NCBI GenBank assembly: GCA_963757145.1
Contig: CAVWQK010000005.1
Location: forward strand, 1,390,606 to 1,414,605
From: an uncultured Acidobacteriota bacterium
GTDB taxonomy: Bacteria; Acidobacteriota; Terriglobia; Acidiferrales; UBA7541
Direction of reading: 5' to 3'
DNA: 24,000 nucleotides
Shown: positions 10,632 through 21,913 of the stretch, in pieces
How positions within the stretch are numbered: position 1 is the stretch's first letter
Layout: each line of letters begins with the position of its first letter
Notes under the pieces: model-generated
Databases searched by the model: none
Seen by the model: the letters and a program-made list of their open reading frames with translations, nothing else
What the model was told of the DNA's origin: nothing
Translations under genes and position numbers: made by a program

Positions 10632-11177
10632 ATGGGGCGACTGACACACCGAACGGCTCCTGGATGGACCTACTTTGTAACCACCAAAGCATGGCAAAAT
10701 GTCGCAGTATTCCAAGTCGCAGCAATAGCGGAAGTTCTCCTTGCAAAATTGTGGGAATATCGAAACCGGAAAAACTACCCGCTCCACGAATTTGTTCTGA
10801 TGCCCAACCACTTGCACGTAGTGCTCACGCCCTCCAGCACAACAACTCTTCAGAAGGCCATGAACCTGATCAAAGGGAGGAGTTCTCATCCGATCAACCG
10901 CGTGCGTCAAAGCAATATGCAAATCTGGCAATCAGGTTTCCATGAATCCAGAATCCGAGATGCCGCCGACGATCAGAAAAGAGCCGACTACATCTGCTTT
11001 AACTCTGTCGTTGCCAAGCTAGTCGAGAATCCAATCGATGGACTCTTCAGTTCCGCCAGCGGAAAATACGAACTCGACCCGATTCCTCAGGGACTGAAGC
11101 TCCTCACGAACGCCTCCAAAGGTGTCGGACCTGAAGGTCCGACACCCACGGCGAACGTCAGATCGGCGGGCGCATGA
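10632..11177 (+). CDS. REP-associated tyrosine transposase (RAYT; IS200/IS605 TnpA-like Y1 HUH enzyme)
   Basis: HUH motif in LMPNHLHVVL, followed by WQSGFHESRI and the catalytic-Tyr region RADYICFNSV. Palindromic REP-like sequences flank the gene. The 3' end reads through the downstream REP (GVGPEGPTP) and overlaps the mutL ATG. Confidence 0.8.
   Translation: MGRLTHRTAPGWTYFVTTKAWQNVAVFQVAAIAEVLLAKLWEYRNRKNYPLHEFVLMPNHLHVVLTPSSTTTLQKAMNLIKGRSSHPINRVRQSNMQIWQSGFHESRIRDAADDQKRADYICFNSVVAKLVENPIDGLFSSASGKYELDPIPQGLKLLTNASKGVGPEGPTPTANVRSAGA
11121..11146. repeat. REP palindrome (11-bp stem, TGAA loop)
   Basis: GGTGTCGGACC-TGAA-GGTCCGACACC is perfectly self-complementary. It lies at the 3' end of the RAYT ORF. 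Confidence 0.7.
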
Positions 11178-14362: not shown

Positions 14363-15082
14363 ATGCCCAGACTGACCATCGCCATTGACGGCCCCGCCGG
14401 TTCGGGGAAGAGCAGTGTCGCGCGCCGCATCGCCGGCATTCTCGAGTATCTGTATCTCGACAGCGGCGCAATGTACCGAGCGCTCGCGCTAAAGGCGATC
14501 CACCGGTGCGTCGCTTTCGATGATGACGCACAACTCGAATCGCTCGCCGGTGAGACTCATATCGAGTTGAAACCGCCGACTATGGAGCAGGAAAAAGCGG
14601 GCGCGAAAAATCGTGTCTTTCTCGACGGTGCCGAAGTGACCGACGCGATCCGTACCGGCGAAGTTGCGCAGGCCGCATCGCGGCTTGCGACGATTGCCGG
14701 AGTCCGCCACGTGCTCGTCGCCGAGCAGCAGCGCGCCGGCGCGGGCGGCGGCGTCGTGATGGAAGGCCGCGACATCGGCACCGTCGTTTTCCCTGGGGCC
14801 GACTTAAAAATCTTTCTCGACGCCTCGCCCGAAGTTCGCGCCGAACGGCGCTGGAAAGAGCACGAAGAAAAGGGCGATCATCTCACGGTGTTCCAGGTTC
14901 TTGAGGAAGTTCGCGAGCGCGACAAGCGCGATCGCGAGCGCAGAGTCTCGCCGCTCGTGCGCGCGGCTGACGCCGTCATCATCGACAACACCGCAATGGA
15001 CATCGAAGAAACCGCAAGACTGATCGTGATGCTGGCGCGCGAGCGCGAAAGGAATCCGGTCCCGGCACAAAGGAGCGTCTGA
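14363..15082 (+). CDS. cmk: (d)CMP kinase
   Basis: P-loop IAIDGPAGSGKSSVA, then YLDSGAMYRA and GRDIGTVVFP. Confidence 0.92.
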   Translation: MPRLTIAIDGPAGSGKSSVARRIAGILEYLYLDSGAMYRALALKAIHRCVAFDDDAQLESLAGETHIELKPPTMEQEKAGAKNRVFLDGAEVTDAIRTGEVAQAASRLATIAGVRHVLVAEQQRAGAGGGVVMEGRDIGTVVFPGADLKIFLDASPEVRAERRWKEHEEKGDHLTVFQVLEEVRERDKRDRERRVSPLVRAADAVIIDNTAMDIEETARLIVMLARERERNPVPAQRSV

Positions 15083-18578: not shown

Positions 18579-19112
18579 ATGAGCACGGCTCGGCTTGAGG
18601 CCTTCAGCGACGGGGTGATCGCGATCATCATCACCATCATGGTGCTGGAGCTGAAAGCTCCTGAAGGGCACACGTTCGCGGCGCTGGCGCAGATGACGGG
18701 AATTTTCCTGAGTTATGTTCTTAGCTTTGTTTATGTCGGGATTTACTGGAACAATCATCATCACATGCTGCATGCGTGTGAGACGGCGACAGGTGGGATT
18801 TTATGGGCGAACCTGCACTTGCTGTTCTGGCTGTCGCTGATTCCGTTTGCTACCGCTTGGCTGGGGCAGAATCATTTTACCTCGGCGCCAGCGGCGCTTT
18901 ATGGGATGGTGCTGCTGCCGCCGGCAATTGCGTGGGTGATTTTGCAGCAGCAGATGATCCGGTCGCAGAAGGGCGAGTCGCTGTTGAAAAAGGCGGTGGG
19001 GGAAGATTGGAAGGGAAAGTTGTCGGTAACGATGTATGTATTAGGGATCCTCGCGGCGTTTCGCGCACCGCGCATCTCAGTGATGCTATATACAGTCACG
19101 GGGATAATCTAG
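18579..19112 (+). CDS. TMEM175 (DUF1211) family potassium channel
   Basis: Signature RLEAFSDGVIAIIITIMVLEL (RxxxFSD) at the N-terminus and multiple TM segments. GGAGGA at 18566-18571 sits 7 nt before the ATG at 18579. The annotated upstream start at 18462 is Arg/Gly-rich and unlikely. Confidence 0.8.
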   Translation: MSTARLEAFSDGVIAIIITIMVLELKAPEGHTFAALAQMTGIFLSYVLSFVYVGIYWNNHHHMLHACETATGGILWANLHLLFWLSLIPFATAWLGQNHFTSAPAALYGMVLLPPAIAWVILQQQMIRSQKGESLLKKAVGEDWKGKLSVTMYVLGILAAFRAPRISVMLYTVTGII

Positions 19113-19428
19113 TTTGTGCCGGACAAGAGGATCGAGCGGGTTGTCACAGAGGAGAGGTAGGTGGGCGGTTTTGCCGTCGAGGAAACTTCAGGGGATAAAG
19201 CCCATCGTTCGTGGCTACAATTAATGTCGCGGTTGAAACCACGACCCACGAAGCTTCAGGCAGTGACGCGGTTAGATCGCGACCAACTAGGATTGGCGAT
19301 TTCAGAGTCAAAGGGCGTAACAGGCTGGCGGCCGTCGACGGTTTTCCGCCGAGGCGAATGCTAAGTACTGTCGAATTAACAAGTAGCGCGAAAAAGCCGT
19401 ACAAAATGCATGTTTTTTGAAATTGTGC

Positions 19429-19457
19429 TTGACAGAAACGGAAACTGCCTTTACTTT
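19429..19457 (+). promoter_or_regulatory. Putative sigma70-type promoter upstream of the Y-RNA-like cluster
   Basis: Consensus TTGACA at 19429-19434, a 17-nt spacer, then TACTTT at 19452-19457. It sits in a locally AT-rich stretch (19381-19440 is about 38% GC). Confidence 0.45.
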
Positions 19458-19660
19458 GAGGTTACCTCAGATGTATGCCTGCCTGACGGCAGGTCCTCAC
19501 TGAGCGAGAATAGCAAACGATGAGACATAAACAACTTAGCCTGACCGGACGCATGACATGGCGACAGGGTTTCGTCGATTGCTTTATCCCGCGATCGTAA
19601 ATCCTTCGACTTGAAGTGCAATCCGAAATAAAGCGTTACGGGGACAAGTATTTACATTTG

Positions 19661-19756
19661 TTTCCGGGATGGTGAAGTTCACAGCTACTTCTGGCAAAGC
19701 CGCAAGGCTCGGGTTCGACTCCCCGTTCTACTGTGAACGATTATTCCTCCCGGAGA
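19661..19756 (+). ncRNA. Y-RNA-like ncRNA unit 1 (T-loop-containing)
   Basis: Closing helix TTTCCGGGA(19661-19669)/TCCCGGAGA(19748-19756). Shared motifs are TGGTGAAG (19670-19677) and CGATTATTCC (19738-19747). A second helix is TTCACAG(19678-19684)/CTGTGAA(19731-19737). Inside are GCC-GCAA-GGC (a GNRA hairpin) and a T-arm-like GGG-TTCGACT-CCC. TTTT lies at 19760-19763. Confidence 0.55.
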
Positions 19757-19877
19757 AGGTTTTCGGCCGCGATCGATTGATTTGATGTTGTTGTGGGGCG
19801 CAAGTTGATCCCGCTCTCAGCAAGCGGTCGTGGTGTGTCCGCTGGAGGTGTGTTGGGAGAGAGGAAAGCTTTTGATT

Positions 19878-20009
19878 TTGCGGCGTGGTGAAGGCGCGAG
19901 ATACATCGGCCCCATTTGTCGCGGGTTCGATTCCTGCCGGTGGCGAAAGCTGCCGTAGCTCAGTGGCAGAGCGATGGGGAAAAACTCGTACCGATTATTC
20001 CCGCCGCAA
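19878..20009 (+). ncRNA. yrlA: YrlA-type Y RNA with circularly permuted tRNA-like domain
   Basis: Closing helix TTGCGGCG(19878-19885)/CGCCGCAA(20002-20009), with TGGTGAAG (19886-19893) and CGATTATTCC (19992-20001). The inner elements, in order: CCCCAT (19910-15); 5-nt variable TTGTC; T-arm GCGGG-TTCGATT-CCTGC (19921-37); 7-bp acceptor-like stem CGGTGGC-GAAA-GCTGCCG (19938-55); TA; D-arm GCTC-AGTGGCA-GAGC (19958-72); G; ATGGGG (19974-79), which pairs with CCCCAT. Confidence 0.8.
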
Positions 20010-20058
20010 TTGTGACGAACGCGGCGCAGGCGAATGTATGCAGGTTTGTGTTGCGGAA

Positions 20059-20144
20059 AACCGGGATGGTGGAGCGTGGAGATACTTCTCGACACGAAGC
20101 GGGGAGCGAAACCCCACAACTCCGCTCGTTTGTTCCTCCCGGTT
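20059..20144 (+). ncRNA. Y-RNA-like ncRNA unit 3 (no tRNA-like module; YrlB-like)
   Basis: Closing helix AACCGGGA(20059-20066)/TCCCGGTT(20137-20144). Motif variants are TGGTGGAG (20067-74) and CGTTTGTTCC (20127-36). An extended helix GAGCG-t-GGAG/CTCC-GCTC encloses two small hairpins (CTTC..GAAG and GGGG-AGCGAAA-CCCC). Confidence 0.5.
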
Positions 20145-20152
20145 GATTCTGG

Positions 20153-20191
20153 CCGGCGCGAATCGCGAATCTAGCGAGCGATTCGCGCCGG
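20153..20191 (+). other. Perfect 14-bp GC-rich hairpin between the Y-like RNAs and the coding genes
   Basis: CCGGCGCGAATCGC(20153-20166), an 11-nt loop, then GCGATTCGCGCCGG(20178-20191). There is no downstream T-run, so it is not a canonical intrinsic terminator. It may be a processing, stability or protein-binding element. Confidence 0.6.
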
Positions 20192-20266
20192 AGCTGGGGA
20201 TGTCCGATGTTGAAATGAAAACGTGAGAACGGATTTACGACACGAGACAGAAAGGAGGACGCGCAA

Positions 20267-20527
20267 ATGGAAGAATGGAGCTCATTGCAGGGCCCGGTGT
20301 TGATGGTGAACGGCAAGTTGACGCTGATGATCCCGCTGGAAGACGGAGGGGCCGAGTTGATGGATTGTTCGCGCGGCATCTCCGAAGTGGAAGGGCCGTG
20401 CCTCAAGATCGCCATTCCGGATTGGCTTGCCGGGATGCTGCGGATCGATGAGGGCGACATCGTCTGCGTCAGCAATTGGGATGGGAGGCTGCACATTCAG
20501 CCGAGTCAGGCGCGCGTGGTGCAGTGA
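20267..20527 (+). CDS. Small hypothetical protein with AbrB/MazE/SpoVT-like motif
   Basis: 86 aa. Strong RBS AGGAGG (20253-20258) 8 nt before the ATG. The C-terminal half LKIAIPDWLAGMLRIDEGDIVCVSNWDGRLHIQP follows the SpoVT-AbrB pattern (..IP..l...l.i.eGd.v.v....g.l.i.P). The N-terminal half has a second GKLTLMIP element. The stop is 45 nt before the rsr ATG. Confidence 0.55.
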   Translation: MEEWSSLQGPVLMVNGKLTLMIPLEDGGAELMDCSRGISEVEGPCLKIAIPDWLAGMLRIDEGDIVCVSNWDGRLHIQPSQARVVQ

Positions 20528-20572
20528 GAGCTGAAGGAGTAGTGGATTTTGTGGGAAAGGAGGAAGGGTGAG

Positions 20573-21913
20573 ATGGCGAAGATGAACGTTTGGAAGCGGA
20601 TGTTTCCTGGAGCGGTTGCGCGGACGCACGAAGCAGCGGTGGCGCAGCGGGCCGATGCGAAAACCGAACTTCGGCGCAGCGTGTTGACCTGCTTGCTGTG
20701 GGAAGACACGTTTTACGAAAAGGGGAGCGCGATTGCGAAGCGTATCGCGGAGCTTGTGGCAAAGACGGAGCCCGCGGACGTTGCGGCTCTCGCTTGCGAG
20801 GCACGCGATGCGATGCAGCTCCGTCATGCGCCGCTCTTCCTCGTGCGCGAACTCGCGCGCCGCAAGGGCGCAGGTCCGCTCGTGGCGGATGCGCTCGAGC
20901 GGGTGATCCAGAGGGCCGATGAACTCGGTGAGTTCGTTGCGCTCTACTGGAAAGAGCGGAAGCAGCCGCTTTCGGCGGGTTCGAAGCGCGGGCTGGCGCG
21001 GGCGTTCACGAAGTTCGACGCCTACCAGCTGGCGAAGTACGACCGCGAAGCGGTGGTCAAACTCCGCGACGTGCTGTTCCTGTGCCACGCGAAACCGAAG
21101 AATGCTGAGCAGGCGGCCGTTTGGAAGAATCTCGTCGAGAACACGCTCGACTCTCCCGATACCTGGGAGGTTGCATTGTCCGCAGGGAAGGACAAGCGCG
21201 AGAATTTCGAACGGTTGCTGCGCGAAGGCAAGCTGGGCGGCATGGCTGTCCTGCGAAACCTGCGGTTGATGCTGGCAGCGGGCGTCGAGCCGTCGCTCAT
21301 TCGCGAGCGTCTCGAAAAAGGCGTGGCGCGGGCGTTGCCGTTTCGATTCGTGACGGCAGCCCGGCACGCGCCGAAGCTGGAGGAATCGCTCGAGAAAGCG
21401 ATGCTTCGCGGCATCTCCGGATTGGGAGAGCTTGCGGGATCGACCGGGCTGGTTGTGGACGTGTCCGGCTCGATGGACGCAGCACTCTCGAACGGGAGCG
21501 AGACTACGCGCATCGATGCGGCGTCGGGTTTGGCGATTTTGCTTCGCGAAAAGGCCGAGGAGTTTTGTATTGCGACCTTTTCCGACGCATGCGTTGAACT
21601 GCCGCCCCGCCGCGGGTTCGCTTTGCGAGACGCGATCTCGGGTTCGCAGGCGCACTCGGGGACCTACCTCCAGCGCGCGCTGGAACAGCTGCGAGAAAAG
21701 CGCGAATGGCGCGACCTCTCGCGGCTCATCGTGATCACCGACGAACAGTCGCACGACGGAATTTTGCCGGCGTGGACCGAACGGGCGTACGTCGTGAACG
21801 TGGCACCGTACAAGTACGGGATCAGCTACGGGAACCGGTGGACGCACGTGGACGGTTGGTCGGAGCGGGTTGTGGACTACATCGCGGCGGTGGAGGAAGA
21901 AGCTGCGGCGTAA
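20573..21913 (+). CDS. rsr: Ro60 orthologue (Rsr): TROVE domain plus C-terminal vWA domain
   Basis: TROVE-like blocks are present: LLWEDTFYEKG, DAMQLRHAPLFLVRELA, KRGLARAFTKF..YQLAKYDRE..KLRDVLFLCHAKPK. The vWA MIDAS motifs are VVDVSGSMD and LIVITDEQSHD. The start is chosen at the ATG at 20573 behind AGGAGG (20558-20563). The ORF track begins at a TTG at 20549. Confidence 0.85.
   Translation: MAKMNVWKRMFPGAVARTHEAAVAQRADAKTELRRSVLTCLLWEDTFYEKGSAIAKRIAELVAKTEPADVAALACEARDAMQLRHAPLFLVRELARRKGAGPLVADALERVIQRADELGEFVALYWKERKQPLSAGSKRGLARAFTKFDAYQLAKYDREAVVKLRDVLFLCHAKPKNAEQAAVWKNLVENTLDSPDTWEVALSAGKDKRENFERLLREGKLGGMAVLRNLRLMLAAGVEPSLIRERLEKGVARALPFRFVTAARHAPKLEESLEKAMLRGISGLGELAGSTGLVVDVSGSMDAALSNGSETTRIDAASGLAILLREKAEEFCIATFSDACVELPPRRGFALRDAISGSQAHSGTYLQRALEQLREKREWRDLSRLIVITDEQSHDGILPAWTERAYVVNVAPYKYGISYGNRWTHVDGWSERVVDYIAAVEEEAAA

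Follow-up and report, generated by a model that had tools for sequence, protein, structure and literature searches.

A probable YrlA-type Y RNA gene upstream of a short Ro60 gene in an uncultured Acidobacteriota genome

The 24,000-nucleotide (nt) stretch of an uncultured Acidobacteriota bacterium analysed here (its whole length is "the window" below) carries, at positions 19879-20008 of the + strand, what is very probably the gene of a YrlA-type bacterial Y RNA, and the gene of its presumed protein partner, a Ro60 homologue, lies downstream. We call this RNA unit 2, the middle one of three related units that precede the Ro60 gene. It is a well-supported but expected finding, a further member of the known YrlA class, in a soil Acidobacteriota lineage. 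As read from aligned sequences, the lineage-specific traits of its family are the GGUGAAGG Ro motif, an acceptor-stem equivalent that is constantly 7 base pairs (bp) long and usually GNRA-capped, and a short Ro60 of ~445 amino acids (aa). Units 1 and 3 are further Y RNAs, less tRNA-like than unit 2. The parts of unit 2 are as follows.

19879-20008, + strand: unit 2, the whole Y RNA (terminal stem plus tRNA-like domain), from the minimum free energy (MFE) fold and full-length homologues in 35 loci
19879-19885, + strand: 5' strand of the basal helix, UGCGGCG, pairing with 20002-20008 (fold and covariation)
19886-19894, + strand: putative Ro60-binding motif UGGUGAAGG with a bulged U (conservation)
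19896-19900, + strand: 5' strand of the connecting stem, GCGAG, pairing with CUCGU at 19985-19989 (fold and covariation)
19901-19909, + strand: conserved single-stranded block AUACAUCGG, consensus GUUACWUCG (near-invariant columns), the equivalent of the YUAY of YrlA
19910-19916, + strand: anticodon-stem equivalent, 3'-strand side, CCCCAUU (CCCCAT at 19910-15), pairing with 19973-19979 (fold and covariation)
19916-19920, + strand: variable loop UUGUC, positions 44-48, with G46 and C48 (sequence and 48:15 covariation)
19921-19937, + strand: T-arm GCGGG/UUCGAUU/CCUGC with one G.U pair (fold and covariation)
19938-19955, + strand: acceptor-stem equivalent CGGTGGC-GAAA-GCTGCCG, 7 bp with two G.U pairs, GAAA at 19945-48 (fold and covariation)
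19956-57, + strand: U8 and A9 (TA; sequence)
19958-72, + strand: D-arm GCUC/AGUGGCA/GAGC (sequence, fold and covariation)
19973, + strand: G26 (sequence)
19974-79, + strand: anticodon-stem equivalent, 5'-strand side, AUGGGG (sequence, fold and covariation)
19985-20008, + strand: 3' return strand, made of CUCGU, the conserved CCGAUUAUUCC facing the Ro motif, and the basal strand CGCCGCA (fold and conservation)

The original prediction had described a complete, circularly permuted tRNA mimic at this place, and each of the permuted-tRNA elements that it named is found, base for base, where it had put them. RNAfold on 19878-20009 gives (at -56.1 kcal/mol, z = -2.1) a permuted cloverleaf on a long interrupted terminal stem, and the MFE and centroid structures are both exactly the four-way permuted fold that had been claimed, plus the terminal stem. 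Within the latter, GG 19887-88 pairs with CC 20000-01 and GG 19893-94 pairs with CC 19991-92. The acceptor-like stem has no free ends and no CCA. The nucleotides that had been singled out for tertiary contacts are likewise all in the window, and they are invariant or covarying among homologues (see below); in tRNA numbering the window has U8, A9, A14, G15, G18, G19, A21, G46, C48, U54, U55, C56, A58 and G53-C61, as well as the stem pairs U12-A23 and C13-G22 that are required for the three base triples of YrlA and tRNA-Phe. Because unit 2 retains the nucleotides out of which a tRNA's elbow and core are built, its distal body should fold as an L shape. The sequence also includes the nucleotides on which TruB (U55) and DusA (a D-loop U) would be expected to act.

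Sixty genome loci around short Ro60 homologues, most of them in Candidatus Acidoferrum/Acidiferrales metagenome-assembled genomes, were fetched for comparison, and by blastn each of the three units of the window has conserved counterparts upstream of the Ro60 gene in related loci. A covariance model (R1) was built from an alignment (A1) of 35 full-length unit-2 homologues; it matches 19878-20009 by construction. Searched on both strands and up to 4 kb into the downstream flank, R1 makes 210 matches (E<=0.01), spread over 57 of the 60 loci and each upstream of the Ro60 gene and on its strand.

The aligned homologues support the fold. When A1 is placed on the window structure, 89.4% of the cells are paired, compared with 33-43% in slid controls, and 18 pairs are doubly changed; none of 500 shuffles reaches the observed value for four of five measures (13 of the 500 do so for the number of further pair types). 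RNAalifold on A1 independently recovers the T, acceptor-stem and D arms and the basal helices. A larger alignment (A2) holds 83 tRNA-like units aligned to R1, a fit that favours the modelled helices, and in it 91.6% of the cells are paired (slid controls 37-46%), 30 pairs are doubly changed and none of 500 shuffles equals it. The T stem is 98.8% paired in A2 with double changes at three of its five pairs, the acceptor-stem equivalent is 95.5% paired with double changes at all seven, and the D stem is 98.8% paired. The anticodon-like stem is firm only in its three to four inner pairs (C-G, C-G and A-U/G-C, the last being AU in 17 and GC in 17 members of A1); overall it is 67% paired and its outer part is variable.

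The tertiary pairs are an independent check on this alignment because they are absent from the R1 model. U8-A14, U54-A58 and G18-U55 are each present in 83 of the 83 units, G19-C56 is present in 80, and the Levitt pair 48:15 covaries (U:A 43, C:G 27, U:G 6, other 7). Substitutions in homologous loci, to which the original prediction had pointed as a check, thus keep the T, D and acceptor-like helices, and they do not overturn the reading because helices and tertiary pairs alike are preserved across the 83 units.

The published hallmarks of YrlA are a Ro60 gene within 4 kb on the same strand, a 5'-proximal GNCGAAN0-1G sequence, near-invariant T and D stem-loops around an acceptor-like stem-loop, a YUAY before the variable loop (V), and the nucleotides for tertiary contacts, among which a G15:C48 / A15:U48 compensation is itself a hallmark (Chen 2014, PMC4201824). 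Unit 2 ends at 20008, 564 nt upstream of the Ro60 gene start at 20573 and on the same (+) strand. Its modules stand in the YrlA order of V, T, acceptor stem and D with the acceptor stem closed, and it has the tertiary nucleotides and the compensating Levitt pair, which is G15:C48 in the window. Before V the family has GUUAC or GCUAC, and the AUAC of the window (19901-04) keeps the U, A and C, with A in place of the first Y. These agreements and near-agreements favour the predicted YrlA-type mimic, in which an anticodon-equivalent stem would lead into the Ro-binding helix.

The putative Ro60 site is in the terminal stem. UGGYGNNGG is kept in 82 of the 83 tRNA-like units and is present in units 1 and 3 as well, and its variable C/U base has a pairing partner that covaries (U-G 33, U-A 31, C-G 12). 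Below it, the basal helix has double compensatory changes in A2 at five of its seven pairs (for example GC:61/UA:19 and CG:64/GC:19), and above it the connecting stem covaries, with AU:36/GC:40 at one pair and CG:44/AU:19 at another.

The acceptor-stem equivalent is 7 bp in the window and throughout the 83 homologues, and its loop is GNRA in 69 of them (GAAA 46, GCAA 14, GAGA 4, GCGA 3, GUAA 1, GGAA 1). The same RNA might act in a cleaved form, RNase P opening the closed loop and the 3' end being trimmed and CCA-tailed to leave a two-piece Y RNA; we think this unlikely but not negligible. The YrlA of Mycobacterium smegmatis, which alone among three characterised Y RNAs has a 7-bp acceptor-like stem, is cut by RNase P, both in vitro and in vivo, and acquires a CCA (PMC4201824). 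Such opening and tailing is conceivable here because the tRNA-like Y RNAs of this lineage all keep a true 7-bp acceptor stem, and an un-permuted construct of unit 2 (below) passes a tRNA detector. On the other hand, the prevalent GNRA cap suggests selection for a stable closed loop and not a disposable linker, the stem's 3' strand is followed by no encoded C or CCA, and most YrlAs are described as circularly permuted tRNAs and considered closed-loop molecules (Wang 2018, bioRxiv 10.1101/312249). More tentative still is an idea by analogy, that a two-piece, CCA-ended and possibly chargeable tRNA-like adaptor could sit on Ro60, in which case arrays with as many as about six divergent paralogues would offer interchangeable adaptors for different partners. 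The closed YrlA-type Y RNA is the form we prefer in what follows.

A match to the YrlA family model had been suggested as a check, and Rfam YrlA (RF02553) is the sole match with E<0.1 on either strand of the 24 kb (19905-19998, 39.9 bits, E 9.8e-6), with the T, acceptor-stem and D arms aligning column for column to its consensus. Several results nevertheless weigh against a YrlA-type Y RNA gene with a Ro60 partner. The 39.9 bits are below the YrlA gathering score of 69 and the match omits the terminal stem; no Rfam family matches anywhere in the window at gathering thresholds, and none of 15 related loci reaches the YrlA gathering score. The literal GNCGAAN0-1G by which the Ro60 site is defined is absent from the window, where GGUGAAGG is one base off (U for C), and its exact form is found in only 6 of the 83 tRNA-like units (7 of 40 among unit-1 RNAs). 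The single-sequence fold has a modest z (-2.1), 5 of 200 shuffles being equally stable. A consensus scan of 19100-20700 gives no sigma-70-type promoter and no convincing terminator, terminator-like sites there being no commoner than in shuffles. Finally, the Ro60 homologue scores 20.6 bits with the NCBIfam Rsr equivalog NF041674, whose cut-off is 900, and is a divergent, short Ro60.

As to the first of these points, the YrlA gathering score misses divergent relatives, because phage Y-like RNAs that lie beside Ro-like genes also score below it: 38.9 bits in the mycobacteriophage prophiT37-1, and 55.9 and 46.7 bits in Xanthomonas phage 10KY502B. We treat it as a conservative curation threshold rather than a biological criterion. 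The outer stem that the Rfam covariance model places on AUCGG/CCGAU (19905-09/19991-95) is regarded as a local-alignment artefact; in an alternative, unscored alignment, GGUGAAGGC at 19887-95 resembles the ggCgaAUGC of the Rfam model better than the model's own mapping does.

That this is no normal tRNA gene had also been predicted, in agreement with ARAGORN, which calls neither tRNA nor tmRNA in the window, and with the Rfam tRNA model RF00005, which has no match there. Unit 2 cannot mature into a decoding tRNA, because its anticodon-equivalent stem runs on into the Ro-binding stem. Put back into tRNA order (5' half, an artificial 7-nt anticodon loop whose inserted anticodon is meaningless, 3' half, discriminator and CCA), unit 2 is called by ARAGORN as a 75-nt tRNA, and such calls rise from 5 of the 83 homologues in native order to 66 of the 83.

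The Rfam tRNA model does pass its gathering score where it bridges adjacent units, joining the D half of one to the T half of the next, and juxtaposed halves of this kind might be taken to mean that the units are decayed or artefactual tandem (dimeric) tRNA genes, T half plus next D half, with no Ro role; dimeric tRNAs can indeed score as YrlA (Chen 2014, PMC4201824). This origin is effectively excluded. The acceptor strands are only the four nt of GAAA apart, too few to hold a discriminator, CCA, spacer and leader; anticodon arms are absent, and the ARAGORN result for the window is negative. The terminal stem, the UGGYG motif and the UUAC block match the tRNA-like parts in conservation and in strength of covariation, and each of the 210 related units is linked to a Ro60 gene.

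The junction matches of the tRNA model were seen in related loci L025, L015, L006 and L042 (L numbers are our handles for individual loci). False tRNA calls lie at L025 2726-2856, L015 3104-3233, L006 2844-2980, L042 3046-3195 and L062 2869-3026, and further ones at L061 3456-3523, L061 3235-3304 and L015 2819-2895. Weak ARAGORN tRNA calls are given by 4 of 40 unit-1-type RNAs and by one phage unit, and a phage GenBank record has a 'tRNA-Thr' annotated over a YrlA-type unit (L061 3451-3584).

The remaining features of the locus are the following.

19663-19754, + strand: unit 1, a Y RNA with the same terminal stem and UGGUGAAG (fold; 40 homologues in alignment A3; 39 bits with R1)
20060-20143, + strand: unit 3, a short Y RNA with a terminal stem, UGGUGGAG, AUACUUC and small hairpins (fold; 37 homologues in alignment A4)
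20153-20191, + strand: a 14-bp perfect GC-rich hairpin, CCGGCGCGAATCGC/GCGATTCGCGCCGG, with an 11-nt loop and no U tract, directly after unit 3
20267-20527, + strand: orf86, 86 aa, with a GGAGG resembling a ribosome binding site (RBS) upstream, found by tblastn at the same position in 39 of the 60 loci
20573-21913, + strand: Ro60 homologue (TROVE and VWA), 446 aa, the presumed partner (Pfam and similarity to PDB entries)

[quoted passage not shown] Judged by these similarities it is a member of a divergent, short (~440-450 aa) TROVE+VWA subfamily, for which over 8000 homologues are found in metagenomes at E<=1e-3; identity is 82-100% among the top 120 of these, most of which come from soil Acidobacteriota. 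A 'hypothetical protein' of Xanthomonas phage 10KY502B (L061 3626-4945) is a 53%-identical short Ro60, and R1 finds three tRNA-like units upstream of it. By eye, two short stretches between these units have a GGUG...GUUACUUC...UUCCC signature, the same as in the acidobacterial RNAs. As the phage shares both the units and this end signature, the acidobacterial RNAs are tied to a wider short-Ro60 lineage.

Units 1 and 3, both conserved in ~40 related loci, have in common a UGGUG(A/G)AG 5' motif, an AUAC/CUAC-UUC block and a UUCC 3' motif. In unit 1 a GCC-GCAA-GGC hairpin (19699-19708) is followed by one that resembles a T-arm (19710-19725), and a D-arm and an acceptor stem are absent; unit 3 has no tRNA-like domain, and its terminal stem and inner hairpin covary (A4). 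Related loci carry about three to six units each, often spaced by 4-8 nt; the three units of the window are a reduced set. The types found in them are a ~93-nt T-arm-only RNA, a ~85-nt short RNA, one to three tRNA-like RNAs of ~125-168 nt, and degenerate RNAs of ~140-178 nt; copy number and order vary among loci, whereas the Ro60 link is constant. The degenerate paralogues, seen in many loci (for example L015 3301-3441 and L052 2897-3040), retain both the tetraloop-capped 7-bp acceptor-like stem and the D-arm's 5' half (UAGCUCA), have a degenerate T loop, and contain an additional GNRA-like capped hairpin. The tRNA-like domain appears to be decaying or diversifying inside the arrays. A regex unit-detector also matched elsewhere in the window (for example at 14742-14831 within cmk); these matches are taken as chance because R1 did not support them.

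The hairpin at 20153-20191 follows a unit-3-type RNA, with compensatory changes, in seven other loci (L001, L002, L003, L012, L015, L030 and L049), and may serve to terminate transcription or to direct processing where the RNA array gives way to the mRNA. Farther upstream, ~18 loci share a conserved block, GGCGACAGGGTnTCG...GATTGCTT...CGCGA...TAAA, which lies at ~19545-19600 in the window and 60-110 nt upstream of the first unit; other loci have a different conserved upstream block with a CTGTAGC/GCTACAG inverted repeat. The ~19545-19600 block may be a promoter or a regulator site. The sigma-70 scan gave no call on it, and a sigma-54 promoter such as that of the Salmonella rsr operon was rejected on inspection only, its GG-to-GC spacing being off.

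It could be asked whether the units are part of a cis-acting leader of the orf86-Ro60 mRNA, their tRNA-like bodies mainly providing RNase P/Z-type punctuation or stabilising or regulating the message downstream. The units do precede the Ro60 operon on its own strand, the 19100-20700 scan found no sigma-70-type promoter between units and genes, the three terminator-like sites of that scan include one upstream of unit 1 and one within it, and the 4-8 nt spacing in related loci is what a single transcript would have. A pure leader role is nonetheless unlikely, because a covarying terminal stem of its own, bearing a Ro-type motif, closes every unit, something that a mere processing signal would not need. 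Moreover, the conserved strong hairpin parts the array from orf86, characterised homologues that are processed from precursors still accumulate as Ro60-bound RNAs (PMC4201824), and the array changes in number and order while its association with Ro60 does not.

For Y RNAs acting in trans, the likely course of events is as follows. The units would be transcribed, probably as one precursor, and then trimmed; a single precursor with trimming is probable because paralogues are only 4-8 nt apart in related genomes. The UGGUGAAGG side of the terminal stem would, as in characterised systems, dock on the outer surface of the Ro60 ring. By likeness to characterised YrlA, the tRNA-like domain would be recognised by tRNA enzymes (TruB, Dus/DusA), and it may be the effector end, tethering Ro60 to PNPase or to another factor recognising the conserved D and T stems; the distal module of characterised YrlA/Yrn1 tethers Ro60 to PNPase in Deinococcus and Salmonella (PMC4201824; bioRxiv 10.1101/312249). 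Units 1 and 3 would offer the same Ro60 alternative adaptors.

The small orf86 is 60-79% identical among loci and has no Pfam, NCBIfam or PADLOC family, its sole trace being UFD1_N1 at E 0.21; from its conserved position it may be an uncharacterised Ro60 companion. Orf86 and the Ro60 gene are in the same frame and were considered as one interrupted gene, but TGA 20525 and TAG 20540 intervene; a fusion is also ruled out by the good RBS and ATG at 20573 and by homologues that begin at the same Met. A defence-system link was sought with PADLOC, which has no matches for Ro60, orf86 or a 135-aa open reading frame (ORF). A protein-coding origin of the region is unsupported: ORFs 19817-20119(-), 19885-20226(+) and 19960-20496(-) have no Pfam family, and there are non-triplet indels among the homologues. 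The gene content of the window is otherwise that of an ordinary chromosome: secA, hisS, aspS, mutL, a fabI-like gene, cmk, a DUF885 gene, an esterase, a TMEM175-type channel and rho, which is convergent downstream here and in 56 of the 60 loci, a stable synteny. No rtcB, rtcA or rtcR was seen among the window genes. We note an IS200-like Y1 transposase ORF (10632-11177; Pfam Y1_Tnp, 2.6e-10) between aspS and mutL, with a 4-nt overlap with the start of mutL.

The YrlA design, a Ro60-docking stem joined to a permuted tRNA body, thereby reaches abundant uncultured soil Acidobacteriota, and also the short ~445-aa Ro60 subfamily with its thousands of metagenomic homologues. A full-text literature search on Ro60 and Y RNA in Acidobacteri- found none, the Chen 2014 list of 254 species being outside that check. 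The conceptual biological novelty is small, and the finding will not surprise specialists. Of practical note, Rfam's curated YrlA threshold misses the Acidobacteriota lineage, for which the 83-sequence alignment, with its clean helix and Levitt covariation, is a ready seed for a better YrlA model; and neighbouring units can provoke false tRNA calls, one of which a phage record apparently holds. The constant 7-bp acceptor stem, the selected GNRA cap and the multi-paralogue arrays are testable handles on the partner of the tRNA-like module.

Among the known systems closest to unit 2 is the YrlA of Salmonella Typhimurium (RF02553, PDB 6CU1), whose tRNA-like domain mimics tRNA in an L shape, its acceptor stem being closed and an anticodon loop lacking (Wang 2018, bioRxiv 10.1101/312249). 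Both lie near a Ro60/TROVE gene on the same strand, have ends that form a paired stem, with a CGAA-like motif near the 5' end, and carry a UA-containing motif before V and a permuted distal tRNA of V loop, T-arm, closed acceptor stem and D-arm. Compared with the RF02553 consensus, the D stem (GCUC/GAGC) is identical and the T stem nearly so, and Levitt covariation is common to both. Unlike YrlA, the unit 2 family has the GGUGAAGG motif, an extra 7-bp basal helix and a conserved 3' strand opposite the motif; the acceptor stem is 7 bp with a natural GNRA loop, whereas that of Salmonella YrlA is 6 bp with a CCG loop, and the window differs from YrlA systems in having no RtcB/RtcA/RtcR context and a partner Ro60 of only ~445 aa.

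With tmRNA and the tRNA-like structure (TLS) of turnip yellow mosaic virus (TYMV), unit 2 shares an L-shaped tRNA core built on a D-loop/T-loop elbow; it is unlike such other tRNA mimics in lacking a free CCA, an aminoacylation signal and any anticodon loop or surrogate for one. The order of its halves resembles that of the permuted tRNA genes of red algae, in which the 3' half comes before the 5' half.

The phiLo Ro60, a canonical doughnut, binds Yrl1 and Yrl2, which are encoded directly upstream, and forms a ternary complex with host PNPase (PMC12135203). Unlike unit 2, these RNAs are described as CGAA-containing stem-bulge-stem structures, with no report of a tRNA-like domain (PMC12135203), and the phiLo system is phage-borne and thermophilic, unlike the window locus. 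In M. smegmatis, as in the window, YrlA and YrlB are upstream of the Ro60 gene, and the two are processed from a single precursor (PMC4201824); YrlA there has a 7-bp acceptor-like stem and YrlB a T arm only, like unit 1. The differences are that M. smegmatis has two units, whereas related loci of our set have up to about six, and that the GNRA tetraloop is conserved in the latter.

Deinococcus radiodurans, in which Yrn1 and Yrn2 act with Rsr and PNPase (RYPER), also has several Y RNAs upstream of rsr, made as a polycistronic precursor (PMC4201824), with a T-arm and with both strands of the Ro-binding helix recognisable, as in the window. Unlike unit 2, Yrn1 has no full D arm and differs in how its T and D elements are oriented; it apparently evolved independently of YrlA (PMC4201824). 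RYPER is the functional model for the tethering of Ro60 to an exonuclease.

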